A stretch of DNA of 64,000 nt. It comes from Bacteroidetes bacterium UBA1941. GTDB lineage: Bacteria > Bacteroidota > Bacteroidia > Chitinophagales > LD1. Positions 5,845-54,368 of this stretch are shown here, in pieces. The stretch's first letter is position 1. Each line of letters begins with the position of its first letter. The stretch lies in the NCBI GenBank assembly GCA_002336805.1, contig DDEZ01000011.1, positions 130,228-194,227 on the forward strand, written 5' to 3'. Position numbers and translations under genes: made by a program. The notes under the pieces are model-generated. The model had not been told where the DNA came from, did no database searches, and saw only the letters and a program-made list of their open reading frames with translations.

Positions 5845-6635
5845 TGGCCCAAGAGAAGAAGCTGAGCCGCGAGGCAGTCTATGAGCTGCTGGAGCAGAAG
5901 TACAAACAATATAACCAGGCCGCCTTTATAAAGGATGATCCGGTACTGATACCACATCGCTATAGCAAGAAGCAGGATATAGAGATAGCGGGCTTTTTTG
6001 CCGCTACGCTCGCATGGGGCCAGCGTGTCACCATTATCAGAAATACGACCCGCATACTAGAGCTGATGGATAATAGTCCGCATGATTTTATATTGCACCA
6101 TGAGGACAAAGACCTGAAGCGATTTCTGGGTTTTGTACATCGCACTTTCAACGATACAGACCTGCTCTACTTTATCGAGTTTTTCAAATGGTTTTATAGT
6201 AGTCACGATTCCCTGGAGCGGGCTTTTACCGGCTCCATGTCTCAGACTGACATTCACACAGAAAAAGCGCTGATCGGTTTTCAGGAGTTATTCTTCTCGC
6301 TGGAGGACTATCCGCACAGGACCAGAAAACATATCTCCTCACCGGCCAGGAAGTCTACCTGCAAGCGCCTCAATATGTACCTGCGCTGGATGGTGCGGAG
6401 GGATAAGCGCGGTGTGGACTTTGGTATCTGGCGCCATATCAAACCTTCGCAGCTTTTGATACCACTGGATGTGCATGTAGACAGGCATGCCCGAGGATTG
6501 GGCTTGCTGAAACGCAAACAGACTGACTGGCAGGCTGTGCTGGAGCTGACCGAAAATCTGAGAGGCTTTGATCCTGTAGATCCGGTCAAATATGACTTCG
6601 CGCTTTTCGGTATGGGTGTGCTGGACAAGCAATAG
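5844..6635 (+). CDS. TIGR02757/DUF2400 family conserved hypothetical protein
   Basis: 263 aa. The N-terminal pattern (DPVLIPHRY..KQDIEIAGF..A.LAWGQR) is recalled from this family. Its ATG overlaps the upstream stop (TAATG). Confidence 0.6.
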   Translation: MAQEKKLSREAVYELLEQKYKQYNQAAFIKDDPVLIPHRYSKKQDIEIAGFFAATLAWGQRVTIIRNTTRILELMDNSPHDFILHHEDKDLKRFLGFVHRTFNDTDLLYFIEFFKWFYSSHDSLERAFTGSMSQTDIHTEKALIGFQELFFSLEDYPHRTRKHISSPARKSTCKRLNMYLRWMVRRDKRGVDFGIWRHIKPSQLLIPLDVHVDRHARGLGLLKRKQTDWQAVLELTENLRGFDPVDPVKYDFALFGMGVLDKQ

Positions 6636-6742
6636 CAACGATGGCCACCGTGCCTGAATGTTAAAAGATAATTTTAACGGCTTAACCTATTGGTCATATT
6701 ATTTTTTTACTAGCTTTAATAGGCACAAAAAAATCTCCGATC

Positions 6743-8014
6743 ATGAAACAAGCTTACATCGTTTGTATTTGCCTTTTGACCTTTGCGCTGTCTTCTTTTT
6801 ATTCTTCTGCCCAGTGTAATAATGGCCGCTACCGGGATAAGATATTCGGCGTATCTACCAATGTGCAGCAGCAGTATGGCTCTGCGCCTAAATATGATGG
6901 TAGCAATCAGGATCTCTACATGGATATCTTCCAGCCATCGGGAGATAACTTTGCACGCCGCCCGCTGATCATACTCGCATTTGGCGGTAGCTTCACATCA
7001 GGTGTGCGTCAGAGCCCGGACATACTGCAGCTCTGTAACGATTTTGCAAAGCGTGGCTTTGTGACCGCTACCATAGACTATCGTATCGGCAAGGAGAACG
7101 GAGACGACTCTGCGATGTATAAAGCCGTACTGCGCGGCATACAGGATATGAACGGAGCTGTGCGCTATTTTTACAAAGACGTATATACTAATAACAGGTA
7201 CCGCATAGATACTAACCAGATCTATATAGGCGGTACCTCAGCAGGTGCTTTCATCGGGCTCAATAAGGCCTATCAGAACCTGAATGTATATTCCCGCCCG
7301 GTGCCATTTGATTTCCTCCTGGCTTTTGGTGCTGTAGGCGGAGCTGATGGCTTTAATAACCCTGGCTACAACTCAAACGTAAAGGGAGTGATAGACCTCT
7401 GTGGCGCCGTATTTGACACTGTATGGCTGCAGCAGGGCGGCCCTATGCTGGTGGGTGTGCATGGTACTGCCGATAATACGGTCTCTTTCTACTATGATAG
7501 TGCACTAGGCGCACAGGATATCAAGAAGCGTTTCTACGGCGGCGGAGATATCATCAATCGTATGAACCATATTGGTAGTGGTTTCACCGGGTATATTTAT
7601 CCGTTTTATGGCGCTGACCACGCTCCATTCGTTTTGCCTATACCGCTCGTACCACCGGCATCGAAGTATATGGATACTACCATACAGGTCTTGCAGGATT
7701 TCCTATATGCGCATACGGACTGCGACTCGACCCGCGTAGGGCAGACGGGTATACTGGATCCGGACTACCATATATCGGTCTCTGCACTGCCCAATCCGGC
7801 GGATGATGTCCTGACCATCTACTCGCATGAAGCGGAGGAGCTGCAGGTGCAGATATATAGCGTAGATGGCAAACTGATGCAGTCCTTTGACCTGGCTGCA
7901 AATGGCAGGCACTACGTGCGAAAAAGCGAGCTAAGCGCAGGCATGTATATCCTGCAGTATTATGACAAGACAGGCGCGGTCAAACTCCGATCGGAAAAAA
8001 TAGTTTTTGAATAA
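6743..8014 (+). CDS. Secreted alpha/beta-hydrolase (esterase) with a T9SS C-terminal sorting domain
   Basis: Signal peptide. GxSxG nucleophile elbow (GGTSAGA). The C-terminal ~80 aa (LPNPADDVLTIY...YILQYYD) matches the T9SS type A CTD pattern. Confidence 0.75.
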   Translation: MKQAYIVCICLLTFALSSFYSSAQCNNGRYRDKIFGVSTNVQQQYGSAPKYDGSNQDLYMDIFQPSGDNFARRPLIILAFGGSFTSGVRQSPDILQLCNDFAKRGFVTATIDYRIGKENGDDSAMYKAVLRGIQDMNGAVRYFYKDVYTNNRYRIDTNQIYIGGTSAGAFIGLNKAYQNLNVYSRPVPFDFLLAFGAVGGADGFNNPGYNSNVKGVIDLCGAVFDTVWLQQGGPMLVGVHGTADNTVSFYYDSALGAQDIKKRFYGGGDIINRMNHIGSGFTGYIYPFYGADHAPFVLPIPLVPPASKYMDTTIQVLQDFLYAHTDCDSTRVGQTGILDPDYHISVSALPNPADDVLTIYSHEAEELQVQIYSVDGKLMQSFDLAANGRHYVRKSELSAGMYILQYYDKTGAVKLRSEKIVFE

Positions 8015-8373: not shown

Positions 8374-8996
8374 GGCTTTGTGTTTTTTCTTTTATCCATT
8401 TCATCGGCTATCCTTGAGGCATCATATGCCTTCATCTCGCGCAGATGATCTATGATATTGTGGTAGCTTGCCTCGTTTCTATTCTGGCTGAGCTTACTCA
8501 CTGCCTCTATTTTGTCTACCTGTATCTCGAGGCCTACCAGGCCGTGCAGATCCTTGTCCAGCAGTGTGCGGGGGAGCTCATCATAACTCAGGGGCTGCGA
8601 GGCATGCGCCGACTCGTACCGGCTCATCAGCTGGCGGAGAATCTCTTCCAGTTGCTTGCCCTCTACGATAGTGGCACGGCCATGGAGATGCACTGCCTGA
8701 TAGTTCCACGTAGGTACATTGGCCTGATCGTACCACGAGGGGGAGATATAGCTGTGTGGCCCCATGAAAACAGCCAGCACCTCAGGCTGCCCGGCCAGTG
8801 TCCTCCACTGCGGATTGGCACGGGCTATATGGCCGTATAGCCTCCACTGATCGCCCGTCACTACCAGCTCCAGCGGGATGTGCGTAGCCCATGGCCTGCC
8901 ATCTACTACGGACATCAGCGTGGCAAACCCAAACTCGCGCACGAGCGCCTCTGCTGCCGCCATATCCTTCTCCTCAAAATGCGGGGGTATATACAT
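8370..8996 (-). CDS. FMN-binding negative transcriptional regulator, PaiB family
   Basis: 208 aa. N-terminus MYIPPHFEE... and overall PaiB-like pattern. 4-nt overlap with the downstream MazG gene. Confidence 0.75.
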   Translation of the reverse strand: MYIPPHFEEKDMAAAEALVREFGFATLMSVVDGRPWATHIPLELVVTGDQWRLYGHIARANPQWRTLAGQPEVLAVFMGPHSYISPSWYDQANVPTWNYQAVHLHGRATIVEGKQLEEILRQLMSRYESAHASQPLSYDELPRTLLDKDLHGLVGLEIQVDKIEAVSKLSQNRNEASYHNIIDHLREMKAYDASRIADEMDKRKNTKP

Positions 8997-8998
8997 AC

Positions 8999-9451
8999 TT
9001 ATTCTTTGTGGCGGGAGTCTATGTGTATCGTGACCGGGCCGTCATTGATGAGGGCTACTTTCATATCAGCGCCAAACTCGCCTGTGCCTACATTTTTGCC
9101 CAGCTCGCGCGATACGAGGAAGACAAATTTCTCATACAGTGGGATGGCCTTATCCGGCTTTGCAGCACGGATGAAAGATGGGCGGTTACCCTTTTTGGTC
9201 AGGGCATATAGTGTAAACTGTGATATAACGATGATGTCTCCATTTATATCTTTTACAGACAGATTCATCAGTCCATTTTCATCGGAGAAAATGCGGAGGT
9301 TCACCAGCTTGGCAGCCATCCACTCCAGGTCCTCTATGGTGTCTTCTTCTTCAAATCCCGCCAGCACGAGCAGGCCACGGCCCATGGCAGACTTGATATG
9401 TCCCTCTATAGTCACACTGGCCTCAGAGGCCCGCTGGATGATGACACGCAT
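8999..9451 (-). CDS. dtd: D-aminoacyl-tRNA deacylase
   Basis: 150 aa. MRVIIQR..ASV...G, SQFTLYA and GADMKV..INDGPVT motifs. Confidence 0.9.
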   Translation of the reverse strand: MRVIIQRASEASVTIEGHIKSAMGRGLLVLAGFEEEDTIEDLEWMAAKLVNLRIFSDENGLMNLSVKDINGDIIVISQFTLYALTKKGNRPSFIRAAKPDKAIPLYEKFVFLVSRELGKNVGTGEFGADMKVALINDGPVTIHIDSRHKE

Positions 9452-9496
9452 GGATGTGTTTTAGTCGCAGGTATTTCGTGAATATAATGCTTCGGT

Positions 9497-10426
9497 CTAT
9501 TCCTCCCAGTGCTTATAGTTGGCCTTGTAGTCTGCCATCATGGTGAGGTAGTTGATGTATCTTTCTTCTGCTATATGGCCGTCCAGGTAGGCCTGCTTTA
9601 CGGCGCAGCCGGGCTCATTGTCGTGCATACAGTTATTGAACCGGCACTGAGGTATGTACGGCCGCATCTCTACAAAGTAGTGGCTGATCTGCTCCGGAAG
9701 GAAATGCATGAGGCCAAACTCCCTCACCCCCGGTGTATCTATGATGCGCCCGCCAAAAGCCGTAAAATGCATTTCAGCAAAAGTGGTCGTATGCATTCCT
9801 TTGCCGGTGATGCGTGATATATCAGTGGTGCGGAGATCCAGCGCAGGGTCGAGCTTATTGAGCAGGGATGATTTGCCCACGCCGGAGTGGCCGGCTACCA
9901 GGGTGGTTTTGCCCGTGAGCAGCTCTTTGAGCTCCTCTATACCCTGCCCGGTATAGGTAGATACGAGGTGGACAGGATATCCTATGTGGGTATAGATATC
10001 GGTAGTGTATTGCTGCTTTTTCAGCCCCTTGGGGTCGAGTATGTCCTGTTTGTTAAAAATAATATGGGTGGGGATGTGATAGGCCTCTGCAGTGAGCAGG
10101 AAGCGGTCTATGAACCCTGTCGAGGTCCGCGGATTGGCCATGGTCACGATCAGGAGGCACTGATCCAGATTGGCGGCCAGTATCTGGCGGGCTCCCTTGT
10201 GTTTGGGCGAGGCGCGTACGATATAGTTTTGGCGCTCGGCTATGGCGGTGATCATCCAGTCGCCGTCCTCACTGCTCACTGTGACGCGGTCTCCTACGGT
10301 CACAGGGTTGGTATCGCGCGTCTCATCCAGGCGAAACACCCCTTTGAGCCGGCAGGATATGGTCTCACCCTGGTCCGTGCGGACCTCATACCAGCTACCT
10401 GTGGATCTGATCACTACTCCTGTCAT
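9497..10426 (-). CDS. rsgA: Ribosome small-subunit-dependent GTPase A
   Basis: Circularly permuted GTPase motifs (NKQD, GHSGVGKSSL, DTPG) and a C-terminal zinc-finger Cys/His cluster. The ATG at 10426 is preferred over the TTG at 10435 because a -7 box overlaps the TTG. Confidence 0.9.
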   Translation of the reverse strand: MTGVVIRSTGSWYEVRTDQGETISCRLKGVFRLDETRDTNPVTVGDRVTVSSEDGDWMITAIAERQNYIVRASPKHKGARQILAANLDQCLLIVTMANPRTSTGFIDRFLLTAEAYHIPTHIIFNKQDILDPKGLKKQQYTTDIYTHIGYPVHLVSTYTGQGIEELKELLTGKTTLVAGHSGVGKSSLLNKLDPALDLRTTDISRITGKGMHTTTFAEMHFTAFGGRIIDTPGVREFGLMHFLPEQISHYFVEMRPYIPQCRFNNCMHDNEPGCAVKQAYLDGHIAEERYINYLTMMADYKANYKHWEE

Positions 10427-10572: not shown

Positions 10573-11613
10573 ATGAAGAAACTGTACGCAGCTATGTTAC
10601 TGCTCATGAGTGGGGGTGTGTTCGCTCAGGATATACACTTCTCAGAGTGGTGGGCTACCCCAGTAGCGATGAATCCTGCCCTGACGGGCAAATTCAACGG
10701 GCTCATCAGGGCTACTTTTGCCTATCGCAACCAGTGGTTTCTCATCCCTACACTCAATCAGACCTCTCCCTATCAGACCATGCAGGCCTCAGTAGATGCC
10801 TCTATAGCCTCGGAGCGCCTGAATAATAATAAGTTTGGTGTAGGCCTGATGTTCTTTAATGATAAAGCGGGTGACGGCTCTCTTACTACCAATTCGGCTA
10901 TGGCCTCTGTGGCCTATCATCAGGCTGTAGACCGCTATGGCAAATCGCATCTCTCTTTTGGCCTCCAGGCGGGATTTGTGATGAAGCAAGTACAGTTTCA
11001 GAATCTGATCTTTGAATCGCAGCTCGACGGATTTGGGTGGAACAGGAATATCAATAGCGGCGAGGCATTTACCGGCAAGCCGATCATCTATCCCGATGTG
11101 AATGTAGGAGCGGCCTTTGCATCGCGCCCTACTGAGAAATTTGCTTATAATTTTGGTGCCTCTGTGAACCACATAGCTGCTCCGCGCGAGAGCTTCCTGG
11201 GTGATGAGAGCAATAGGATCAACCGCCGCTTCAACGTACACGGTAGCCTCGAGATCAATTCTGGATATGACAATCAGTGGACCTTTGTGCCGACCTTCCT
11301 CTTTATGATGCAGGGACAGGCGCAGCAGTACAACTTTGGCCTGGGGGTCAACTATCAGACTGCCAATGAGCATGTGGGAGTATTCGGTGGCGCTTTTGGC
11401 CGTGCCAATAGCAAAGCTAAATTTGATGCAGCTATACTGAATGTAGGTGTAGATGTATATAGCGCCCGTATAGGTGTGGCATACGATATCAATATCTCAG
11501 GACTGAGCGGTGCGAGCAAATCACAAGGTGCGCTCGAAGCTTCTATCGTATACATATTCAAGCGTCAGAAAGACGAGTGGATACAGTATCCGATGTACTG
11601 TCCTAAGTTCTGA
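10573..11613 (+). CDS. PorP/SprF family type IX secretion system membrane protein
   Basis: Signal peptide, then QDIHFSEWW..P...NPALTG, the hallmark N-terminus of PorP/SprF beta-barrels. ATG at 10573 chosen inside the longer ORF. Confidence 0.8.
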   Translation: MKKLYAAMLLLMSGGVFAQDIHFSEWWATPVAMNPALTGKFNGLIRATFAYRNQWFLIPTLNQTSPYQTMQASVDASIASERLNNNKFGVGLMFFNDKAGDGSLTTNSAMASVAYHQAVDRYGKSHLSFGLQAGFVMKQVQFQNLIFESQLDGFGWNRNINSGEAFTGKPIIYPDVNVGAAFASRPTEKFAYNFGASVNHIAAPRESFLGDESNRINRRFNVHGSLEINSGYDNQWTFVPTFLFMMQGQAQQYNFGLGVNYQTANEHVGVFGGAFGRANSKAKFDAAILNVGVDVYSARIGVAYDINISGLSGASKSQGALEASIVYIFKRQKDEWIQYPMYCPKF

Positions 11614-11618
11614 TAATA

Positions 11619-11636
11619 GCTGCGCTTTGGCGCAGC
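11619..11636 (+). terminator. Weak stem-loop downstream of the PorP/SprF gene
   Basis: GCTGCGC-TTTG-GCGCAGC hairpin 6 nt after the stop. No T-tract, so uncertain. Confidence 0.3.
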
Positions 11637-11808
11637 AGACCTATATATCCTGCCTCTCTCAGGCCTGCCTACTCTCCTATGGCGTGCCGGGGCTGGATGA
11701 CTTTTGATCATTTCAATACCAGTGACTATGGCATCTACTTGTCCGTATTGTCACAGCGTCTACTCCGCACAGGCGGGCAGTATTTATTGCTCCAGGAGCG
11801 GTGAGGGT

Positions 11809-12672
11809 ATGGAGAAACCCGCCACCGGCACGCTGCTGATCCGAGCTCCGAAACTGGCAGAAACAGACTGGCATGTGTCCAGGCTGTCCATCAGCCGCAT
11901 GGTGAATGGAGAGGCGCGCTATAAAGTGGGTGCCCGTGACTGCACCGTGACGCCGGGCAATTTTCTGGTCATGAATCAGGGGCAGTCTTACAAGGCCTCC
12001 TTTGAGGGTAAAGAGGATGCGGAGCTGATGACAGTTGGATTCCGCCCGGGCTTTGCCGAAGGCATCTTCCAGAATCTCACCAATACAGAAGAGTGGCTGC
12101 TGGATAATCCCGCCTTTACTCCTGCGGAGCCGTTACGATTTTTTGAGAAAACGTATGAGGTAGATCCTGTGATCACGGGGGTACTACAGGAACTGCGCGC
12201 TATAGTAGGCTCAGACCATGCTGCAGCCAGGGCACCTGACCTGGAGGATAAGTACACACTGCTGATAGAGCGGCTGATGGAGATGCACTTTGATATCTAT
12301 AGTGATATACAGACCCGCGGATATGTGAAGCCATCTACAGGTGTCGAGCTATATAAGCGGATCAGCATGGCTAAAGACTACATGGATTCAAACTATACGA
12401 CTGACATCACGCTGGAAGATATTGCACAGAATTGCTTTCTATCCGTGAGCCATCTGAAGCGCCTTTTCAAGGAGTATTTCCATATCACGCCGCACCAATA
12501 TATCATACAGCGCCGGCTGGAGAAAGCAAAGACACTCCTCATACAATCTGACATGCCAGTGAGGAATATCTGCGGGGAAATAGGGTTTGAGAACACGTCT
12601 TCCTTCATCCGCCTGTTCCGGAATTCATATAATCTAACACCTTTGTCCTTCAGAGGAAGGTCTCTGGACTAA
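11809..12672 (+). CDS. AraC family transcriptional regulator
   Basis: C-terminal double HTH (SVSHLKRLFKEYFHITPHQY ... IGFENTSSFIRLFRNSYNLTP) with a cupin-like N-terminal half. Start is ambiguous (11704 TTG, 11728 ATG, 11809 ATG). Confidence 0.8.
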   Translation: MEKPATGTLLIRAPKLAETDWHVSRLSISRMVNGEARYKVGARDCTVTPGNFLVMNQGQSYKASFEGKEDAELMTVGFRPGFAEGIFQNLTNTEEWLLDNPAFTPAEPLRFFEKTYEVDPVITGVLQELRAIVGSDHAAARAPDLEDKYTLLIERLMEMHFDIYSDIQTRGYVKPSTGVELYKRISMAKDYMDSNYTTDITLEDIAQNCFLSVSHLKRLFKEYFHITPHQYIIQRRLEKAKTLLIQSDMPVRNICGEIGFENTSSFIRLFRNSYNLTPLSFRGRSLD

Positions 12673-12673
12673 G

Positions 12674-13639
12674 CTACTCCTGAAAGAGGTATACAGTACC
12701 ACCGCCACCCACTACGATACCTGAGGTAGCAGAGAACATATGTACGGCGCGAAGCCTCTCACCGGTAAAGGGTTTTACGGTTTTCCAGCTCAGGCCGCCG
12801 TCAGAGGTATGTACCATCAGGCCTGATTCTCCCACGGCGTAGCCATTGTTTTCATCTATGAAGTCTACGCCCATCAGGTGATCTACCTTGCCAAAGAAAC
12901 CATTGCCTCCCTTTACGATACGCCAGCTCTGGCCACCATCTGTACTCTTGATGATCTCGCCCTGATAGCCTACCGTATATCCGGTAGAGGTATTGACAAA
13001 TTTCATGGTTTGATAGAAGTCGCCATTCTCTTTCACCACATGATAGGTACGGCCACCATCTGTGGAGCGCACCACTGTACCGTAGCCACATACCACCACA
13101 GTGCTATCATCCAGATAGGCGCAGCCTATGAACGTATGCAGTGAGTCAAAGTAAGCCTGCCGCCAGGTATTGCCGCCATCTTCGGTATTGTAGATAGGTC
13201 CGCCCTTGTACCCCCAGCCGCAGGCAGCTACGCCACGTCGCCTGCCATAAAAGGATAACTGGTTGATAGCTATACTGCTAAAAGATAAGGTGCTAAAGGT
13301 CTGTGTGCCATCTCCCGTATAGGCCATATGGCCATAAAAACCTGCTATAAAACCTTCCTGAACGGAGAAAAAGTGCATGGTATACAGAGTAGCCTGAACT
13401 ACAGAATCAGGTACAGACCAAGAATGGCCACCATCTGCCGTACGCATAATGATACCCGATAGATAGCGTGGCCCGCCACAGATGTAGCCCACAGAGTCGT
13501 TTACAAATTTGACATCATTCAGGTCATAGGCAGTATGCGAGTCGACACGCTGTGTGTGCAGTGTCATCTCGCCTTTGTGGCAAGAGGCCAGGAGGCAAAG
13601 GAGTAAAACACTAGCGATATGTAAATGATACCTCAGCAC
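12674..13639 (-). CDS. Lipoprotein with BNR/Asp-box repeats (Ycf48-like beta-propeller)
   Basis: Lipobox LLASC. Five SxDxGxxW-type repeats (TADGGHSW, TEDGGNTW, STDGGRTY, STDGGQSW, TSDGGLSW). Confidence 0.7.
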   Translation of the reverse strand: MLRYHLHIASVLLLCLLASCHKGEMTLHTQRVDSHTAYDLNDVKFVNDSVGYICGGPRYLSGIIMRTADGGHSWSVPDSVVQATLYTMHFFSVQEGFIAGFYGHMAYTGDGTQTFSTLSFSSIAINQLSFYGRRRGVAACGWGYKGGPIYNTEDGGNTWRQAYFDSLHTFIGCAYLDDSTVVVCGYGTVVRSTDGGRTYHVVKENGDFYQTMKFVNTSTGYTVGYQGEIIKSTDGGQSWRIVKGGNGFFGKVDHLMGVDFIDENNGYAVGESGLMVHTSDGGLSWKTVKPFTGERLRAVHMFSATSGIVVGGGGTVYLFQE

Positions 13640-14817
13640 TGTGCTATCGCATTTAATATAACACTGCAGGCAAAGTCTATCTCCGCATCAGTAATGATGA
13701 GCGGTGGTCCGATACGCATAGACTGCGGGGCGAAGAGGAACCAATCTGTCAGTACACCACTGGCTATACAGGTATCTATTATCTTTTTATTCTGCTCAAA
13801 GCTGTCAAACTCCAGAGCCATCATCAGCCCTTTGCGATGCACAGACCTGATGAGCGGGTGCTTGAGCTTTGACTCAAATAGCTGGCCTTTGCGCTCCACA
13901 TCATCTATGAGCTTTTCATCCTGCAAGACCTGTAGCGCAGCCAGGCCAGCAGCGCAGCTCACAGGATGCCCGCCAAAGGTCGTGATGTGCCCCAGCACCG
14001 GATTGTCAGTCAGATCATGCATGATACGCCTGTCTGCTATAAAGGCCCCCAAGGGCATACCTCCGCCAAAAGCCTTTGCCAGCAATAGTATGTCAGGGAT
14101 GATACCATACTGCTCAAAAGTGAACATCGACCCGCACCGCCCAAAGGCTGTCTGTATCTCATCTACTATGAGCAGTGCGCCAGTCTCAGCACAGCGCTGT
14201 CGTAGCGCCTGCATATAAGCTGCAGATGGGATGGTGACCCCGGACTCTGCCTGCACAGGATCTATGACCACGGCAGCGGTGTGAGATGATATCTGCTGCA
14301 GGTCATCCATATGTCCATACTGCAGCTCCAGTACATCCGGTAGCAGCGGGCGAAAGGCCCTCTTGAAATATTCATCGCCTATCAGACTCAGTGCACCCTG
14401 AGTAGAGCCGTGATAGGAGTTTTTGAAATGAACGAATTGTGTCCGGCTCGTGTGGCGCTTGGCCAGCTTCATAGCGCCCTCTACTGCCTCCGCGCCGGAG
14501 TTGGTAAAGTAAACCGAATCCAGAGACGCTGGCAGGATATCAGTCAGCGCCTTGGCAAAGGCTGTCTGCGGCGATGCTACAAACTCACCATATACCATCA
14601 GGTGCATATATTTTGCGGCCTGATCCTGTACTGCCTTTACGATACGCGGATGAGAGTGGCCCAGGCTGCTGACGCTGATGCCTGATATCAAGTCCAGATA
14701 CCTACGGCCCTCAGGACCATACATATACACGCCCTCTGCCCGCTCTATCTCTATCAGGAGCGGGGCGGTACTGGTCTGGGCCACATGCTGCAGGAAGACC
14801 TGTCTGGGTGTAAGCAT
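13633..14817 (-). CDS. Class III PLP-dependent aminotransferase (acetylornithine/GABA aminotransferase family)
   Basis: 394 aa. Has LGHSHP, DEIQT.FGR.G and LLAKAFGGGMPLGA (PLP lysine) motifs. Confidence 0.85.
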   Translation of the reverse strand: MLTPRQVFLQHVAQTSTAPLLIEIERAEGVYMYGPEGRRYLDLISGISVSSLGHSHPRIVKAVQDQAAKYMHLMVYGEFVASPQTAFAKALTDILPASLDSVYFTNSGAEAVEGAMKLAKRHTSRTQFVHFKNSYHGSTQGALSLIGDEYFKRAFRPLLPDVLELQYGHMDDLQQISSHTAAVVIDPVQAESGVTIPSAAYMQALRQRCAETGALLIVDEIQTAFGRCGSMFTFEQYGIIPDILLLAKAFGGGMPLGAFIADRRIMHDLTDNPVLGHITTFGGHPVSCAAGLAALQVLQDEKLIDDVERKGQLFESKLKHPLIRSVHRKGLMMALEFDSFEQNKKIIDTCIASGVLTDWFLFAPQSMRIGPPLIITDAEIDFACSVILNAIAQC

Positions 14818-16952: not shown

Positions 16953-18611
16953 TCAAATATCAAGCCCGTATTTACGCGAGGTAGCCTTGGCTATCTCATA
17001 GCCGGCATCGGCATGGCGTATCACGCCCATAGCAGGGTCATTGTGCAGGACGCGGCCCAGGCGACGCTGAGCGTCCTCAGTGCCATCAGCCACTATCACC
17101 ATGCCCGCGTGCAGAGAGTAGCCCATACCTACGCCACCACCGTGGTGGAAGCTGACCCAGCTGGCACCACCGGCAGTATTGATCAGCGCATTCAGTATAG
17201 GCCAGTCTGCTATCGCGTCAGAGCCATCCATCATTGCTTCCGTTTCCCGGTTAGGCGACGCTACGGAGCCTGTATCGAGGTGGTCCCTGCCTATCACGAT
17301 AGGGGCCTTGACTTTACCTTCTTTTACCAGCTGATTGAATGCCAGACCTGCTATCTCTCTATCTCCCATACCCAGCCAGCAGATGCGCGCAGGCAGGCCT
17401 TGGAAAGCGATCTTCTCCTGCGCCATATCGAGCCAGCGGAGCAGGCCTGTATTATCAGGAAAAAGTTCTTTCAGTTTAGCGTCGCAGACGGCGATATCAG
17501 CGGGGTCTCCGCTCAGCGCTACGAAGCGGAACGGCCCCTTGCCCTCGCAGAAGAGCGGACGGATATATGCCGGCACGAAGCCCGGGAAATCAAATGCATT
17601 CTGCACGCCGCGCTTGTCTTTGGCCTGGCCGCGCAGGTTATTGCCATAGTCAAAGGTGATGGCGCCGCGCTCCTGTAGCTCCAGCATCTGGCGCACGTGG
17701 CGCGCCATGGTATCCAGTGAGCGGCGCTTGTACTCCTCCGGATCACTGTCGCGCAGTACGCGTGCCTGCTCTACACTGAGCCCCTCAGGGAAGTATCCTA
17801 TCAGCTCATCATGTGCAGATGTCTGATCAGTGAGTGTGTCCGGAGTGATATTGCGGTCCAGCATTCTTTGCAGCAGGTCTACGACGTTGCAGAGTACGCC
17901 TATAGATACAGCCTCTCCGTTTTTCTTTGCCTCCAGGGAGCGGTCTATAGCCTGATCTATGTCCGCGTAGTACTCATCCAGGTATCGCGTCTCTATACGC
18001 TTCTTGATACGCCACTCCTCCATCTCTGCTATGAGGGCCACGCCTTCATTCATAGTGATGGCCAGCGGCTGTGCGCCACCCATACCACCCAGGCCGGCGG
18101 TCACATTGAGCGTGCCCTTGAGTGTATTATTATAATGCTGCGCTGCGAGGGACAGGTATGTCTCATACGTACCCTGCACGATGCCCTGCGTACCGATGTA
18201 GATCCATGAGCCGGCAGTCATCTGGCCATACATGATGAGGCCTTTCTTTTCCAGCTCGCGAAAGTGCTCCCATGTAGCCCACTTGCCCACGAGATTAGAG
18301 TTGGCTATCAGTACGCGTGGTGCATCCTTGTGTGAGCGCAGGATGCCTACAGGCTTGCCACTCTGCACCAGCAGTGTTTCATCTTCTTCCAGGTTTTGCA
18401 GACATGATATGATCTTGTCAAATGCCTCCCAGGTACGTGCTGCTTTGCCTATTCCACCATATACGATCAGGTCCTCCGGGCGCTCGGCCACCTCCGGGTC
18501 GAGGTTATTGCAGAGCATGCGGAGGGCGGCCTCCTGTACCCATCCTTTGCAGGTGAGTGTAGTGCCGCGTGGAGCGATTATGATCCTTTTATCCCTAGTA
18601 GTAGCAGACAT
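16953..18611 (-). CDS. hutU: Urocanate hydratase
   Basis: 552 aa, collinear with HutU ([37 protein letters not shown] etc.). Confidence 0.95.
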
Positions 18612-18671
18612 GATTTCGATTTTATTGATGCAAAATATAAAACTTAAACAAAGAGCCTGATTTAGAGTTTG

Positions 18672-18687
18672 TTGCTTTTAAAAGCAA
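18672..18687. promoter_or_regulatory. Perfect 16-bp palindrome, candidate operator
   Basis: TTGCTTTTAAAAGCAA is its own reverse complement. Lies in the divergent region between hutU and the response regulator/bphO/bphP operon. Confidence 0.3.
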
Positions 18688-18711
18688 TTTATTCCCCATA
18701 TTGGGAAATTG

Positions 18712-18719
18712 TATTTTTG
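18712..18719 (+). promoter_or_regulatory. Bacteroidota-type -7 promoter box
   Basis: Exact TATTTTTG, 71 nt upstream of the response-regulator ATG. A TTTA lies about 20 nt further upstream as a possible -33 element. Confidence 0.3.
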
Positions 18720-18790
18720 ATTGACCGAAGGAAAAGGTGCAAATACCAAGTACTTTGCGCTTTTGACGGTGATTATGAGTAAATTACATC

Positions 18791-19228
18791 ATGAAAAGTA
18801 ATAAGCATATCTTCTACGCTGATGATGATCTGGATGATCAGGAATTGTTCAAAGAGGCAATAGAAGAAATAGATGGAACCCTTGACCTGCATATACGCAA
18901 TGACGGACGTGAACTGATAAGTCTGATACAGAGTCCACCTCCTGCGCCTGACGTCATCTTTCTCGACCTAAATATGCCTATGATGAATGGGTACCAGACG
19001 CTCACTGAGATCAGAAATAATAGTAAGACACAAGATATACCAGTCATCATCTTCTCTACTTCTGATGATGAGAAGGCCATCAATCTATCTCGCGAGCTTG
19101 GTGCAAATCTCTATGTGCCGAAGCCCACTAGCTACAAGGAAATAAGAAATGCCATCAGGCATAGCCTGGGTATAGATTGGTCCAGTTTTCGCACGGATGA
19201 TGCAAATTTTGTTTTCAGAGCTTCATAA
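18791..19228 (+). CDS. Single-domain response regulator (receiver only)
   Basis: 145 aa. Acidic pocket DDDLDD, phospho-acceptor in FLDLNMP, conserved T/S (FSTS) and K (VPKP). Confidence 0.85.
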   Translation: MKSNKHIFYADDDLDDQELFKEAIEEIDGTLDLHIRNDGRELISLIQSPPPAPDVIFLDLNMPMMNGYQTLTEIRNNSKTQDIPVIIFSTSDDEKAINLSRELGANLYVPKPTSYKEIRNAIRHSLGIDWSSFRTDDANFVFRAS

Positions 19229-19231
19229 TTT

Positions 19232-19846
19232 ATGACTGAATCCCACAGCAATACGCAACCGACCGCTACTGACTCCTTTCTGAAAAATCTACGATCTGCC
19301 ACAGGCCCCATGCATAGTGCACTGGAGGCAAATCCTGTGTCAGCATCACTGATGGCTCCGGATCTAAGCCGTGCTACCTACAGGCGCTACCTGACACTGA
19401 TGGGAGAGGTCATATCCTTTACGGAGAAAACCATCTTCCCCGCAGTGAAGGATATCATACCGGATATAGACCAGCGCCTCAAGTCAGACCATATACATGC
19501 GGACCTCGCTGCGCTGCAGGACGCACCAGCTGATAGCCCCGCCATATTTCATCCGGATGAAAAGGAATTCAGCCTGCCCTTTGCCATGGGCTATATGTAT
19601 GTGATAGAGGGTTCTACGCTGGGCGGCCGTGTCATACTAAAACATGTACAGGACAAGCTAGGCCTGAGCGAAGATCAAGGTGTAGCCTTCTTTGCCGGGT
19701 ATGGTACAGAGACAGGTATGAGATGGAAAAACTTTTTATCAAACCTAACCAACTATGCAGAGCAGAGTGGCAGTGGCGATGAGATAATAAAGGGTGCCCA
19801 GCACGCCTTTGCTGCTATTGACCGCTACTTTGCGGCTAATAGCTAG
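19232..19846 (+). CDS. bphO: Biliverdin-producing heme oxygenase
   Basis: 204 aa with a HemO/BphO-like helical pattern (ATGPMHSALE..., YVIEGSTLGG). Sits directly upstream of a bacteriophytochrome. Confidence 0.8.
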   Translation: MTESHSNTQPTATDSFLKNLRSATGPMHSALEANPVSASLMAPDLSRATYRRYLTLMGEVISFTEKTIFPAVKDIIPDIDQRLKSDHIHADLAALQDAPADSPAIFHPDEKEFSLPFAMGYMYVIEGSTLGGRVILKHVQDKLGLSEDQGVAFFAGYGTETGMRWKNFLSNLTNYAEQSGSGDEIIKGAQHAFAAIDRYFAANS

Positions 19847-50779: not shown

Positions 50780-51478
50780 ATGTCCGGTCTACCATCATCT
50801 GCACAGCAGGTACTGTATGCAGCCAGTTTCCAGGAGCTGGTCTCGTTGCCCTTTGGCGGTGTGGTGAATGCTGCCTGCTGGTCGCGGCAGCTGCGTGGGG
50901 ACTTTGGCGAGATAGTGCGGAAGGTGCCGCTGGAGGGCAATATCACCGTGCTGGAGGAGGAGGCGCTGCTGGCGCTGGACCTGAGCCCGGAGGGACAGGT
51001 GGCGCGCGAGGTGCTGCTGAGTGATATGCGGCTGCTCACAGACCACGGTGCCGCGCCGGTGCTGAACCTGATCCGGCACTATGACAGGGATGCGGCTGTT
51101 CCTTTCTTCCCCACAGATGTGTACTCCTGGCATGTGGACCGCGCGCCGGTACCGACGGCTACCTATCTCTGCACCTACTACGGCGCGGCGAGTGAGATCC
51201 TGCCCAATGCACAGGCCGAGCAAAAAATAATGGTGCCTGAAATACGCGCGGAGCTGTGGCAGCTCTATGGCGGTGGTGAGGAGGGCTTTGAGGAGTGGCT
51301 CAGTGAGCACTTCTATGACCTGCACTACCAGGCTGTACCAGATGCGCAGCCGGTGCAGCTGGGTACAGGCCACCTGTGGCGGCTGGCGGTAGACTGCCCG
51401 GGGAGTGGTGTGCTGCCCTGTGTGCACCGGGCGCCAGTGGAGGCCGATGGGAGGGTGAGGTTGCTGCTGATCTGCTGA
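50780..51478 (+). CDS. GC-rich hypothetical protein, DUF1826-like (tentative)
   Basis: 232 aa. Strong G/C at third codon positions in this frame only. Motifs SWHVDRAP...YLCTYYGAASE...VHRAP...RLLLI are recalled from DUF1826. Confidence 0.5.
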   Translation: MSGLPSSAQQVLYAASFQELVSLPFGGVVNAACWSRQLRGDFGEIVRKVPLEGNITVLEEEALLALDLSPEGQVAREVLLSDMRLLTDHGAAPVLNLIRHYDRDAAVPFFPTDVYSWHVDRAPVPTATYLCTYYGAASEILPNAQAEQKIMVPEIRAELWQLYGGGEEGFEEWLSEHFYDLHYQAVPDAQPVQLGTGHLWRLAVDCPGSGVLPCVHRAPVEADGRVRLLLIC

Positions 51479-51488
51479 CGGCTGATAC

Positions 51489-51574
51489 TTGTCGCGGAAC
51501 TAAGTTCCGCAATGTGCCTGGTAGGGAGTATGCGCTTTGTGTGAGGCACGGAACTAAGTTCCGCGCCAGTGGGG
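51489..51574 (+). repeat. REP doublet A (BIME-like composite of two palindromic REPs)
   Basis: Cores GCGGAACTAAGTTCCGC (51494-51510) and CGGAACTAAGTTCCG (51549-51563). About 85-90% identical over ~85 nt to array C (53471-53560). Confidence 0.85.
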
Positions 51575-51580
51575 GATTAA

Positions 51581-51604
51581 GGTTCAAGCGAGTAAGCTTG
51601 AACC
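51581..51604. terminator. Perfect 9-bp stem-loop between convergent genes (possible bidirectional terminator or REP-associated hairpin)
   Basis: GGTTCAAGC-gagtaa-GCTTGAACC. No flanking T-tract. Confidence 0.35.
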
Positions 51605-51619
51605 AGCGCGAGAACCTAG

Positions 51620-52165
51620 TTAATAACTCTCAGCAATAAAGTTATTTCTATCAATGTTATCTATTATCAAGCTTTCGATATGGTGGGGCATTTCACATTG
51701 ATATTCGCTTGCGGAATATGTGCATCTCGGACATTCAAAATTGGGACCAAAACTAGTTTTGTATTGTATCATGGTAGTAGTACATTTTGGACAATGAGCA
51801 GTTAATTGAGTTATTTGCCACCCTGAATTTGTGTGCTTCCATTTCCAACTCCACTTCCAATTTTTTAAGACTCCTTCCGTATAATTCAAAAATTTAGGCA
51901 AGGGTGGGGTTTGTGGTTGTGAAAATCGCCGGAGAATTACTATGAATACAAGTATAGCAGCTGCACTAGAGAGAACCCACCATAATTTTATTTCAAAAGA
52001 TAACACCCGAGTAAGGGTCTTTATAAGGTAGTTTGAAACTAAAATGAAAGTTGTTCCAAGAGGAAGTTCTTTTATATAATCGTGAATTATAGGGATAAGT
52101 GAACCTACCACAGCAGGTATAATTCCTAATGCTAATGGCGATTTTATCCACGAATCCTTTTTCAT
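51620..52165 (-). CDS. AT-rich ORF: TM-anchored protein with a Pro-rich linker, Trp/Lys-rich segment and C4 zinc ribbon; unknown family
   Basis: 181 aa with 2-3 N-terminal TM helices. Then QPQTPPLPKF, WKWSWKWK, CPKC-x16-CPRC and a following CEMPHH. About 30% GC. Lies 12 nt downstream of the preceding ORF. Confidence 0.6.
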   Translation of the reverse strand: MKKDSWIKSPLALGIIPAVVGSLIPIIHDYIKELPLGTTFILVSNYLIKTLTRVLSFEIKLWWVLSSAAAILVFIVILRRFSQPQTPPLPKFLNYTEGVLKNWKWSWKWKHTNSGWQITQLTAHCPKCTTTMIQYKTSFGPNFECPRCTYSASEYQCEMPHHIESLIIDNIDRNNFIAESY

Positions 52166-52177
52166 TTCCGACCAATA

Positions 52178-52738
52178 TTAAATATCAAATGTTTCGGTAC
52201 CTATTTGCTTGTCAATCTCTTGAATTCTTTCATCAACCATATTGAGTTCTATATGATGTTTATTCAAGGACAAAAGCAAATCCCTTTTCTTTATGTGAGC
52301 AAGTAGATATGCAAACGTCGATTCGTAAATGCTCTCAAATATTTCTTCTAATCCGACTAGCTTATTCTTTATTAATAGACAAGCACCCGCGGTTAAAACA
52401 CCAACTAAACTCCATGTTTCTAATAGTCCAGAAATATTGCATGGGACAAGATTATATTTCGTCAAAAAGTAAAAAAATCCTAATGATAACAGCAATAATA
52501 TTGTAACAAGGAGGTTGCCTAATACCCGAGAAATTTGAAGTAATCTTGACTTCAGGTTTTCCTTCGAAGAAATCAATTTATACAGTTTGGTGTATCGATT
52601 AGCTAGTAGATCTCTTTCTTTTATTAAAGTCTCTTTTATACAATTCGAAGAATTTTGATAACAATAGACTACGTACACTATTATCAATAAAATGACTAGG
52701 AATAACACGGTGTTGCGGAAAGAGTAATCGGTATTCAT
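52178..52738 (-). CDS. AT-rich ORF: 3-TM membrane protein with helical cytoplasmic segments; unknown family
   Basis: 186 aa. Hydrophobic helices at roughly residues 10-27, 72-95 and 105-125. Predicted helical/coiled segments lie between them and at the C-terminus. Confidence 0.6.
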   Translation of the reverse strand: MNTDYSFRNTVLFLVILLIIVYVVYCYQNSSNCIKETLIKERDLLANRYTKLYKLISSKENLKSRLLQISRVLGNLLVTILLLLSLGFFYFLTKYNLVPCNISGLLETWSLVGVLTAGACLLIKNKLVGLEEIFESIYESTFAYLLAHIKKRDLLLSLNKHHIELNMVDERIQEIDKQIGTETFDI

Positions 52739-52810
52739 ATAAATTTATAGAGAATAAAAGTACAAATTGATTTTTCTAAAATATAGAGCTTTGTTTTTTG
52801 TTTACAAGTT

Positions 52811-52883
52811 CCCCTACTGGCGCGGAACTTAGTTCCGTGCCGAAGCTGGGCGCAAGCTTAACGGCGGAACTTAGTTGCGCGAG
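52811..52883 (-). repeat. REP doublet B (inverted relative to A and C)
   Basis: CCCCTACTGGCGCGGAACTTAGTTCCGTG is the reverse complement of the A2/C2 unit (CACGGAACTAAGTTCCGCGCCAGTGGGG). The second core at 52864-52880 is degenerate (GTTGCGC). Confidence 0.85.
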
Positions 52884-52917
52884 TAAAGTTGCTTTCTTAA
52901 AAGTATTATATTTAAGT

Positions 52918-53466
52918 ATGAGCGACAAATGGAAAGTGCGTGATAATGCGGAGCCTTATTTTGTGACTTTTGCGGTCAATGGATGGATAGATGTTTTTAC
53001 ACGCAATCTTTACCGCAATATTTTCTGTGAGAGTATAGCCTATTGTCAGGAGCACAAAGGACTGGAGCTATATGCCTGGGTGCTGATGACCAACCATGTG
53101 CATATGATCATCGGCTCGGCCGGAGAACGCGCTATAAGTGATATTGTACGCGACTTGAAAAAATATACTTCGGTACACATCGTGAGGGCAGTGATCGCTA
53201 ATGATCAGGAGAGCCGTAAGGAGTGGATGCTTCAGATATTTGGCCAATCAGCGACTGATAGTGCGAAGCATGATAAGTTCCTTTTCTGGCAGGAGCAGTA
53301 CCATCCTATACAGCTATCTGATGCTACGATCTTCAAACAGAAAATGGATTACATTCATGATAACCCGGTTCGTGCTGGGTTTGTATCCGAGCCGGAGCAT
53401 TATCTGTATAGCAGTGCTATAGATTTTTGTGGTGGTAAGGGGTTGTTGAGGTTGGAGCCTGTGTAG
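52918..53466 (+). CDS. REP-associated tyrosine transposase (RAYT; IS200/IS605 TnpA-like HUH Y1 enzyme)
   Basis: HUH motif in LMTNHVHMIIG, catalytic Tyr context MDYIHDNPVRAG, and a family-typical N-terminus MSDKWKVRD..PYFVTF.V.GWIDVFTR. ATG at 52918 chosen inside the longer ORF that reads through REP B. Confidence 0.85.
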   Translation: MSDKWKVRDNAEPYFVTFAVNGWIDVFTRNLYRNIFCESIAYCQEHKGLELYAWVLMTNHVHMIIGSAGERAISDIVRDLKKYTSVHIVRAVIANDQESRKEWMLQIFGQSATDSAKHDKFLFWQEQYHPIQLSDATIFKQKMDYIHDNPVRAGFVSEPEHYLYSSAIDFCGGKGLLRLEPV

Positions 53467-53470
53467 GCGA

Positions 53471-53598
53471 TGTGTCGCGGAACTAAGTTCCGCAAATGTT
53501 CCTGATGTTGAGTATGCGCTTTGTGTGAGGTACGGAACTAAGTTCCGCGCCAGTTGGGGCTTTGTGTGAGGTACGGAACTAAGTTCCGAGCCGAAGCT
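53471..53598 (+). repeat. REP array C (three REP units)
   Basis: Cores at 53477-53493, 53533-53547 and 53574-53588. The unit CTTTGTGTGAGGTACGGAACTAAGTTCCG is duplicated in tandem. The right flank GCCGAAGCT is shared with array B. Confidence 0.85.
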
Positions 53599-54187
53599 CT
53601 GTTATAGTCCCCGATATCTTCTTTATTTTTATGCTACTGTTATCTTCTTCGTAGGATAAATGGAATTTGTCTAAAACCCTTATGAAATCTTGAATATAAC
53701 TCAGTGAAGTTTTCTTTGTTTCACTTTCACGCTCAAAATCGAATGTTCCAAAATGTTCCTTAACAACTAGATAGTAATCACCCATATCAAAGGGATAGGG
53801 ACTCGGAGATATTGATCCTTCATATCCAATAAGACTGATTATATGAAAAATTAAATTCTTTTCTACGACACCCCAATCTTTCAACTCATTGTACCAGTCA
53901 GCGTTACTATATGTTTCATCACGCTCCAGTTCTTCCTGCGAGAAATAATTAAGTAAATTTCCCTCAGGAGACATGAAATGATGAAAATAAATTTGTTCAG
54001 TCTGCTTGTTTGCAAGGGTAATTTCCTCTCCTCCGTTATTTATGTATTTAATATGCCCCGTCTCTTTATATTCTGGTTGATATGAATTGTAAAGTACAAA
54101 GCGGTCATTTTCATGAATCTTTTGAAGCAATGTATGCAATCCATATTTAAGTTTAGCTGCTTGTAGGGCTTTCTCGTCTATGTTCAT
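53579..54187 (-). CDS. AT-rich ORF: soluble acidic protein of unknown family
   Basis: 202 aa with no TM helix. The last ~5 codons and the stop codon (…ELRLGT*) are read from REP unit C3 and its flank. Confidence 0.55.
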   Translation of the reverse strand: MNIDEKALQAAKLKYGLHTLLQKIHENDRFVLYNSYQPEYKETGHIKYINNGGEEITLANKQTEQIYFHHFMSPEGNLLNYFSQEELERDETYSNADWYNELKDWGVVEKNLIFHIISLIGYEGSISPSPYPFDMGDYYLVVKEHFGTFDFERESETKKTSLSYIQDFIRVLDKFHLSYEEDNSSIKIKKISGTITELRLGT

Positions 54188-54368
54188 ATTATTATTTTCC
54201 TGCCTAACAATGAAACTGTGTAAGAGACACGCGTAGGCCTAAGGTAACACAAAGATTCCTCTTTCATCTTGAGGCGCTCGCCTTCCTCGCCTCCCGGTAA
54301 TAACGCACGACACAGGTAGCTTATTTTTTCCTCTAATACACCTCCCTTGCTTTTCTTACCTTCACCCC

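Follow-up and report, generated by a model that had tools for sequence, protein, structure and literature searches.

The closest described systems are the REPtrons, or REPIN-RAYT systems (Nunvar 2010; Bertels and Rainey 2011, PMC3116915; Bertels 2017, PMC5581495), in which an intact REP-associated tyrosine transposase (RAYT) of the HUH-Y1 type is flanked by inverted doublets of repetitive extragenic palindromic (REP) sequences, more of these doublets (REPINs) occupy intergenic spaces close by, next to gene 3' ends, and assemblies end at the repeats or differ in how many copies they have. All of these traits are found in the DNA considered here, a 64-kb stretch of contig DDEZ01000011.1 (hereafter the window) from a wastewater Bacteroidota that is Chitinophagales-like. 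The likeness covers positions 52810-53600 and 51490-51576 only, and does not extend to three AT-rich open reading frames (ORFs), labelled A, B and C and all located on the minus strand, with which the REPs are interspersed. REP/RAYT systems are, to our knowledge, currently regarded as being without cargo genes. We consider it probable, at roughly 60%, that the three ORFs and the REPtron are not one system, and that A, B and C are lineage-specific, laterally acquired orphan genes belonging to two separable units in the REPIN-filled space around the RAYT.

According to this explanation, a patch of acquired DNA would have lodged in dispensable, REPIN-colonised space between housekeeping genes. 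The first unit would be B-C, a bicistron coding for two small inner-membrane proteins and carrying its own leader and terminal hairpin, and the second would be A, coding for a stand-alone cytoplasmic acidic protein, the native 3' end of which may have been overwritten by a REP. The coordinates and strands of the three ORFs, which were first placed in a first-pass annotation of the window, were confirmed together with their lengths and are as follows.

54187→53579, minus strand: ORF A, 202 aa, soluble, isoelectric point (pI) 5.1, with a single known homologue and under purifying selection.
52738→52178, minus strand: ORF B, 186 aa, three transmembrane (TM) segments, ORFan.
52165→51620, minus strand: ORF C, 181 aa, two N-terminal TM helices and a C-terminal zinc ribbon motif, ORFan.

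The GC contents of A, B and C are 0.348, 0.319 and 0.355, respectively, while those of the neighbouring genes are 0.452 (RAYT), 0.627 (DUF1826-like gene) and 0.562 (PBP1A). Computed in 500-nt steps, the window has a mean GC content of 0.503 (sd 0.043), and all the steps under 0.38 are confined to 51601-52601 or 53501-53801. The GC content at third codon positions (GC3) is 0.32 for both A and B and 0.29 for C, compared to 0.58-0.73 in the flanking host genes. The four GC values which the first-pass annotation had counted by hand (0.30, 0.50, 0.60 and 0.683) proved exact when recomputed, and its claim that the three ORFs are foreign in composition is borne out by their GC3 (0.29-0.32) and by their lying in the sole stretch below 38% GC in the 64 kb. 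This composition suggests horizontal acquisition of A, B and C, perhaps together on a single AT-rich fragment. Short AT-rich ORFans are reportedly typical of recently acquired genes, and are said to come often from mobile elements. The DUF1826-like gene (50780-51478, plus strand, Pfam E 1.2e-5) is the GC-richest stretch of the window (62.7% GC, GC3 0.73) and deviates in composition the opposite way to A, B and C, so that at least three compositions make up the mosaic found between the lipoprotein gene and PBP1A.

The longest stop-free runs measure 188 and 206 codons, against shuffle maxima of 167 and 146 (n = 2000 shuffles), and A, B and C are real genes. It is highly unlikely that B and C are chance ORFs in AT-rich non-coding or decayed DNA, even if the lack of homologues deprives both of evidence from conservation and AlphaFold is confident just for hydrophobic helices. 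Stop-free runs of 186-188 codons at 33% GC beat all 2000 shuffles, the two ORFs follow closely upon each other on the same strand, and the regular TM segments, together with a canonical CPxC-16-CPxC ribbon, are protein-like.

The separation of A from B-C follows from the one relative that A has. This protein, P0002 (62% identity), is the only homologue of A among approximately 15 billion proteins, and originates from two Bacteroidota metagenome-assembled genomes (MAGs) and one Sequence Read Archive (SRA) assembly (L001-L003). The proportions of nonsynonymous and synonymous differences between the two genes (pN 0.23 and pS 0.89, the latter being saturated) point to a real gene under purifying selection. 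An exhaustive search of 1.84 billion representatives with the profile of A and P0002 returned their own two-member family and P0005 (1272 aa). The latter was rejected as a relative of A, as it is an artefact, namely a translated 17-copy tandem (satellite) repeat, and its E of 3e-14 against the A profile is a false positive reached by adding up weak repeat matches. No B or C homologues are found near the A homologue in L001-L003, which argues that A is independent of B-C. When the 20 kb of L001 were compared with the whole window by tblastx, only the RAYT and A were common to both. The L001 copy of A is also AT-rich (GC3 0.38, in a host of 50% GC).

These results bear on the model of the first-pass annotation, according to which the REPtron was later inserted into what had been a single anti-phage or abortive-infection operon, A-B-C, with B as a membrane effector and C as a zinc-binding sensor. 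The compact operon which it envisaged upon removal of the REPtron is geometrically possible: when 52811-53598 is removed in silico, A remains open for 207 codons and its stop falls about 40 nt before the start of B, and the three genes share strand and GC3. What is unsupported is that they make one functional operon. The first-pass annotation had named a lack of co-occurrence of the three genes elsewhere as grounds for refutation, and this is what is seen: the only homologue of A is found without B and C, and for B and C themselves the lack of homologues leaves no comparative support at all. A defence island was not found either, nor any mobile element setting, as the genes within 10 kb on each side are of housekeeping type and comprise UvrC, PBP1A, the ribosomal proteins L21 and L27, Psd, CdsA and a cargo protein of the type IX secretion system (T9SS). 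Rfam and tRNA scans gave nothing relevant.

Small TM proteins are frequent effectors in defence systems, and the failure of A, B and C to match any known family leaves room for novelty. That no characterised family can be assigned to them, as first proposed, is upheld by searches of Pfam, NCBIfam, PHROGs and PADLOC, in which just sub-threshold zinc-ribbon or TM noise was found, and of the PDB, where a sequence search gave nothing for A and B and bacteriorhodopsin TM noise for C. In PADLOC-DB, neither A nor B has a match, and the C-HEC-08 match (E 0.014, 12.5 bits) concerns the zinc ribbon only, which does not rise above generic noise. The AlphaFold2 models were unusable for both A (pLDDT 44, from a 2-sequence alignment) and C (pLDDT 56, confident in the TM helices only), and Foldseek found nothing in the PDB at E ≤ 0.001. 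No relatives of A, B or C were found by tblastn against phages and plasmids or by pattern scans of IMG/VR. A defence role is thus not supported, and a three-gene defence operon is quite improbable; beyond the three genes being foreign, uncharacterised and geometrically compatible, nothing supports an operon split by a REPtron.

The RAYT and the REPs around it are arranged as follows.

52918-53466, plus strand: RAYT, 182 aa, with intact HUH and Tyr motifs.
51490-51576, plus strand: left REPIN, with inverted REP hairpins at 51490-51512 and 51544-51576 (families D1/D2, inverted pair I4).
52810-52882, minus strand: middle REPIN, in inverted orientation, forming the left arm of the REPtron (I1, I2, I9).
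53473-53559, plus strand: right REPIN, 3' of the RAYT.
53569-53600, plus strand: extra REP, overlapping the 3' end of ORF A.

The RAYT matches the NCBIfam family REP_Tyr_transpos (E 5.8e-30, 104 bits for a cut-off of 80), and with its HUH motif (H60-V-H62) and its tyrosine region YIHDNPV it qualifies as a RAYT-type Y1/HUH transposase. Across the 64 kb there are 7 copies of the REP core CGGAACTAAGTTCCG, against 0.07 expected by chance; all 7 are within 51495-53588, and no further than 2.1 kb from the RAYT. The REPs are arranged as doublets of two inverted REPs, i.e. REPINs, and the RAYT is flanked by inverted REP hairpins as in a REPtron, with a 31-nt inverted repeat (94% complementary) at 52811-52841 and 53529-53559. 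The earlier description of a REPtron splitting A from B therefore stands in so far as an intact RAYT with REPs sits at this place, but the REPs are not limited to that gap. Two points had been overlooked. One is the left REPIN, which separates ORF C from the DUF1826-like gene where their 3' ends converge, and as a result of which B-C lies exactly between two REPINs. The other is that the rightmost REP encodes the end of A, namely its last 6 codons and its TAG stop.

Other assemblies also differ at the REPs. A UBA MAG assembly of the same organism (L005, GCA_002389745.1, positions 10596-10629) is without one 41-bp REP unit compared to 53519-53600 of the window. The missing unit is located between the RAYT and A, and the difference could be either a REP copy-number polymorphism or an assembly artefact. 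Two short-read Logan contigs (L006 and L007) stop exactly at a REP, at 52818, which hints that this REP is repeated elsewhere in the genome.

Concerning the 3' end of A, the AT-rich homologous part of the gene ends at around codon 194-196 in both genomes, while the last 7-10 codons consist of GC-rich local sequence, which is REP in the window (53579-53600) and unrelated sequence in L001 (10580-10618). The end at around codon 195 could be either a shared breakpoint or an unconstrained tail. Deriving the boundaries of an A cassette from the point where DNA homology stops, at the coding sequence, was rejected as uninformative, because the synonymous sites are saturated. The motif AAGCTGG(GCGC)AAGCTTAACGG, a 22-nt hairpin match, links 52842-52863 of the window (spacer of the middle REPIN) to 10634-10652 of L001, just after A; the match is marginal, since its score of 25, against 21 for the best shuffle, comes from a set of 16 comparisons.

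The descriptions of the three proteins given in the first-pass annotation (A acidic and soluble, B with three TM segments, C a TM-anchored zinc ribbon protein) hold. A has no TM segment. B has hydrophobic segments at approximately residues 3-31, 66-98 and 105-123; its loop at 28-70 is basic and its C-terminal tail acidic. C has two, at approximately residues 6-31 and 57-82, as well as a Trp/Lys-rich stretch (NWKWSWKWK) and two cysteine knuckles, C125-P-K-C128 and C145-P-R-C148, the ribbon at 125-148 corresponding to nt 51722-51793. The two CxxC knuckles have the spacing of a zinc ribbon, but the match to Zn_ribbon_TFIIB (E 0.013) does not reach the Pfam cut-off, so the predicted ribbon is a motif and does not amount to family membership. 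The positive-inside rule would place this ribbon in the cytoplasm, along with the C-terminal tail of B.

B-C looks like a self-contained unit because B, the upstream gene, is separated from C by a gap of 12 nt, and because of the two elements which border the pair.

52739-52809, minus strand: B leader, 71 nt, AT-rich, with TAnnTTT-type motifs at -47, -24 and -9.
51581-51604, minus strand: stem-loop 3' of the C stop, with a 9-bp stem (-17.8 kcal/mol, z -2.07).

The leader is a putative promoter region of B-C's own and the stem-loop possibly a terminator, a role for which its stability gives modest support, and B-C would thus probably be transcribed on its own. A scan with sigma-70 and terminator consensus sequences stayed at background level, although it does not cover Bacteroidota promoters. 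We also considered whether B-C could be REP-bracketed cargo mobilised by the RAYT, on account of a 32-nt inverted repeat (97%) around the pair. This was discounted because each REPIN holds both orientations, so that any two REPINs match.

A neighbour of the A homologue, of SUKH-3 type, provides the sole positive hint as to a conflict function for A, B and C, which is a weak guess. In L001, the RAYT is found at 8805-9365 between 57-nt inverted repeats (8669-8725 and 9401-9457). Between this REPtron and A, at 9455-9772, there is an AT-rich ORF (GC3 0.27) with no start codon, which begins at the REP arm and matches the C-terminal third (57 positions) of Pfam SUKH-3 (E 1.3e-4, 22.6 bits for a cut-off of 23). 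This gene of SUKH-3 type was apparently cut at its 5' end by the insertion of the REP/RAYT. SUKH-3 is a family of polymorphic-toxin immunity proteins, and the match is a single case falling 0.4 bit under the cut-off. A prophage-like block and a restriction-modification (R-M) pair near the L001 A homologue also hint at a conflict context. The block, at 10997-13853 and downstream of A, comprises a DUF1376-like gene, several tiny ORFs and a repressor of the helix-turn-helix (HTH)/S24 type, and looks like a prophage remnant; the R-M pair, at 17121-19602, is of type II (N6_Mtase and a BsuBI/PstI restriction endonuclease).

The three genes could then be orphan immunity genes against interbacterial toxins, forming an acquired array akin to those for interbacterial defence, with A as a cytoplasmic toxin-binding protein, while B, perhaps also C, would act in the membrane against effectors that form pores or target membranes. 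Pore-forming toxins are known to have immunity proteins with several TM segments, and A is small, acidic and soluble, like many immunity proteins, with its L001 homologue following directly after the truncated SUKH-3 gene. As a rule, immunity cassettes are rich in AT, evolve fast and have a scattered distribution (Zhang et al. 2012, PMC3482391; SUKH family, PMC3113570). However, neither A, P0002, B nor C matches any immunity family (Imm, SUKH or other) in Pfam or NCBIfam, no toxin gene or fragment and no other immunity gene adjoins A, B or C within the window, and the SUKH-3 match itself is one case just under the Pfam cut-off, which makes this explanation unlikely. A broader guess would be that the genes are left-over cargo of interbacterial or mobile-element conflict, with A as a toxin-binding protein of the orphan-immunity type and B-C as a membrane toxin/immunity or abortive-infection pair. 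Such a function is tentatively proposed and is rather doubtful.

Both known A genes lie at most 0.6 kb from a REPtron. The L001 RAYT has many closer relatives than the window RAYT, which ranks 37th of 69 in distance from it, and the two RAYTs are not sisters. A RAYT-A unit inherited as a whole was rejected on these grounds, and since 0 of 80 related RAYT loci have an A homologue.

This proximity could instead mean that the flanks of RAYTs and REPs act as capture sites for AT-rich cassettes (A, B-C), which would be inserted at, or mobilised via, the REP hairpins in a loosely integron-like manner. Both A genes being so close to a REPtron beside non-sister RAYTs speaks in favour of it, as do the position of B-C exactly between two REPINs and the fact that in both genomes A ceases to be AT-rich at about codon 194-196. 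A comparable case is provided by L142, where a membrane ORF of 33% GC is found 40 bp from a REP in a contig of 63% GC. The sample nevertheless consists of 2-4 cases, and the 32-nt inverted repeat that surrounds B-C does not count as evidence. REPINs settle in any dispensable intergenic space, there is no A, B or C homologue in the 80 related RAYT loci (L088-L167), and most neighbours in the 22 RAYT loci with long flanks are large and of host-like GC. We therefore regard cassette capture as very improbable. The same goes, with slightly more reserve, for its fuller form, a highly improbable one, in which REPtron flanks are landing sites for A, the SUKH-3 fragment and B-C, the REP/RAYT serves as a hairpin-based capture platform, and the A family was recruited independently beside two non-sister RAYTs with the same breakpoint at about codon 195.

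Some further observations were made on the 80 loci. The nearest relatives of the RAYT (at most 52% identity) are almost all located on contigs of 30-43% GC, and on the GC-richer contigs L129, L153 and L154 the RAYT is 10-13 points under the GC of its contig, which suggests that RAYTs of this clade move horizontally. The membrane ORF of L142 (5676-5954, minus strand) codes for 92 aa with several TM segments, lies beside the right REP of the RAYT, and is followed by a PIN-like gene (6532-6993, minus strand) with a Pfam PIN match (E 1.4e-3) below the cut-off. In L153 (1524-2870), an AT-rich RAYT (37% GC in a contig of 46%) precedes a DUF433 gene (E 1.7e-14) with a partner of 71 aa, and these two genes look like a pair of the toxin-antitoxin type. 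The pattern of AT-rich accessory genes beside the RAYTs of L142 and L153 is anecdotal.

Several points weigh against our explanation of the locus as two units of acquired orphan genes. The shared strand and GC3 and the contiguity of A, B and C without the REPtron would also fit a single co-acquired, and even co-transcribed, array, which is possible. The synonymous sites of A are saturated, and yet both copies are AT-rich in hosts of about 50% GC, which a simple recent horizontal transfer explains only in part. The ORFan status of B and C depends on a word-seeded search of 5.8 billion protein clusters, in which only self-matches were found and from which distant relatives could have escaped. 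An empty site was sought via PBP1A, but even the nearest genome in the species collection is just 70% identical in this protein, and the upstream gene order is not conserved; with no empty site found, the acquisition is read from composition alone. Finally, the functional guess leans on one borderline neighbour match in one other genome.

As it stands, the locus matters little, since it adds three uncharacterised proteins and one Bacteroidota example of a REPIN-RAYT system. If B-C were a new membrane-acting toxin/immunity or defence pair, the finding would matter, and if AT-rich cassettes beside RAYTs were general, REP/RAYT systems would be linked to gene acquisition. A combination of AT-rich composition, small size, membrane segments and a zinc ribbon is not enough by itself for calling a defence system.

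Compared with small membrane-effector modules of the defence, abortive-infection or toxin-antitoxin kind, B-C is similarly a two-gene unit for small TM proteins, one of which has a predicted cytoplasmic zinc ribbon, while A, B and C differ from such modules in having no PADLOC or Pfam match and no defence island, and B-C in having no homologues. The genes resemble polymorphic-toxin orphan immunity genes and interbacterial defence arrays (PMC3482391, PMC3113570, PMC12247911) in being small, fast-evolving and of deviant composition, and in the position of the A homologue after a SUKH-3 fragment; they differ in belonging to no immunity family and in having no adjoining toxin, recombinase-associated array or type VI secretion system (T6SS) context. 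With AT-rich ORFans they share short length, a composition far more AT-rich than the host, no or hardly any homologues and a location between conserved housekeeping genes, whereas the persistence of AT-richness in A in two hosts despite saturation, with both copies beside a RAYT, is not predicted for such genes. As for the REPIN-RAYT systems, the well-studied cases are from Proteobacteria, while the host here is a Chitinophagales-like Bacteroidota, in which a gene next to the REPtron takes its stop codon from a REP.

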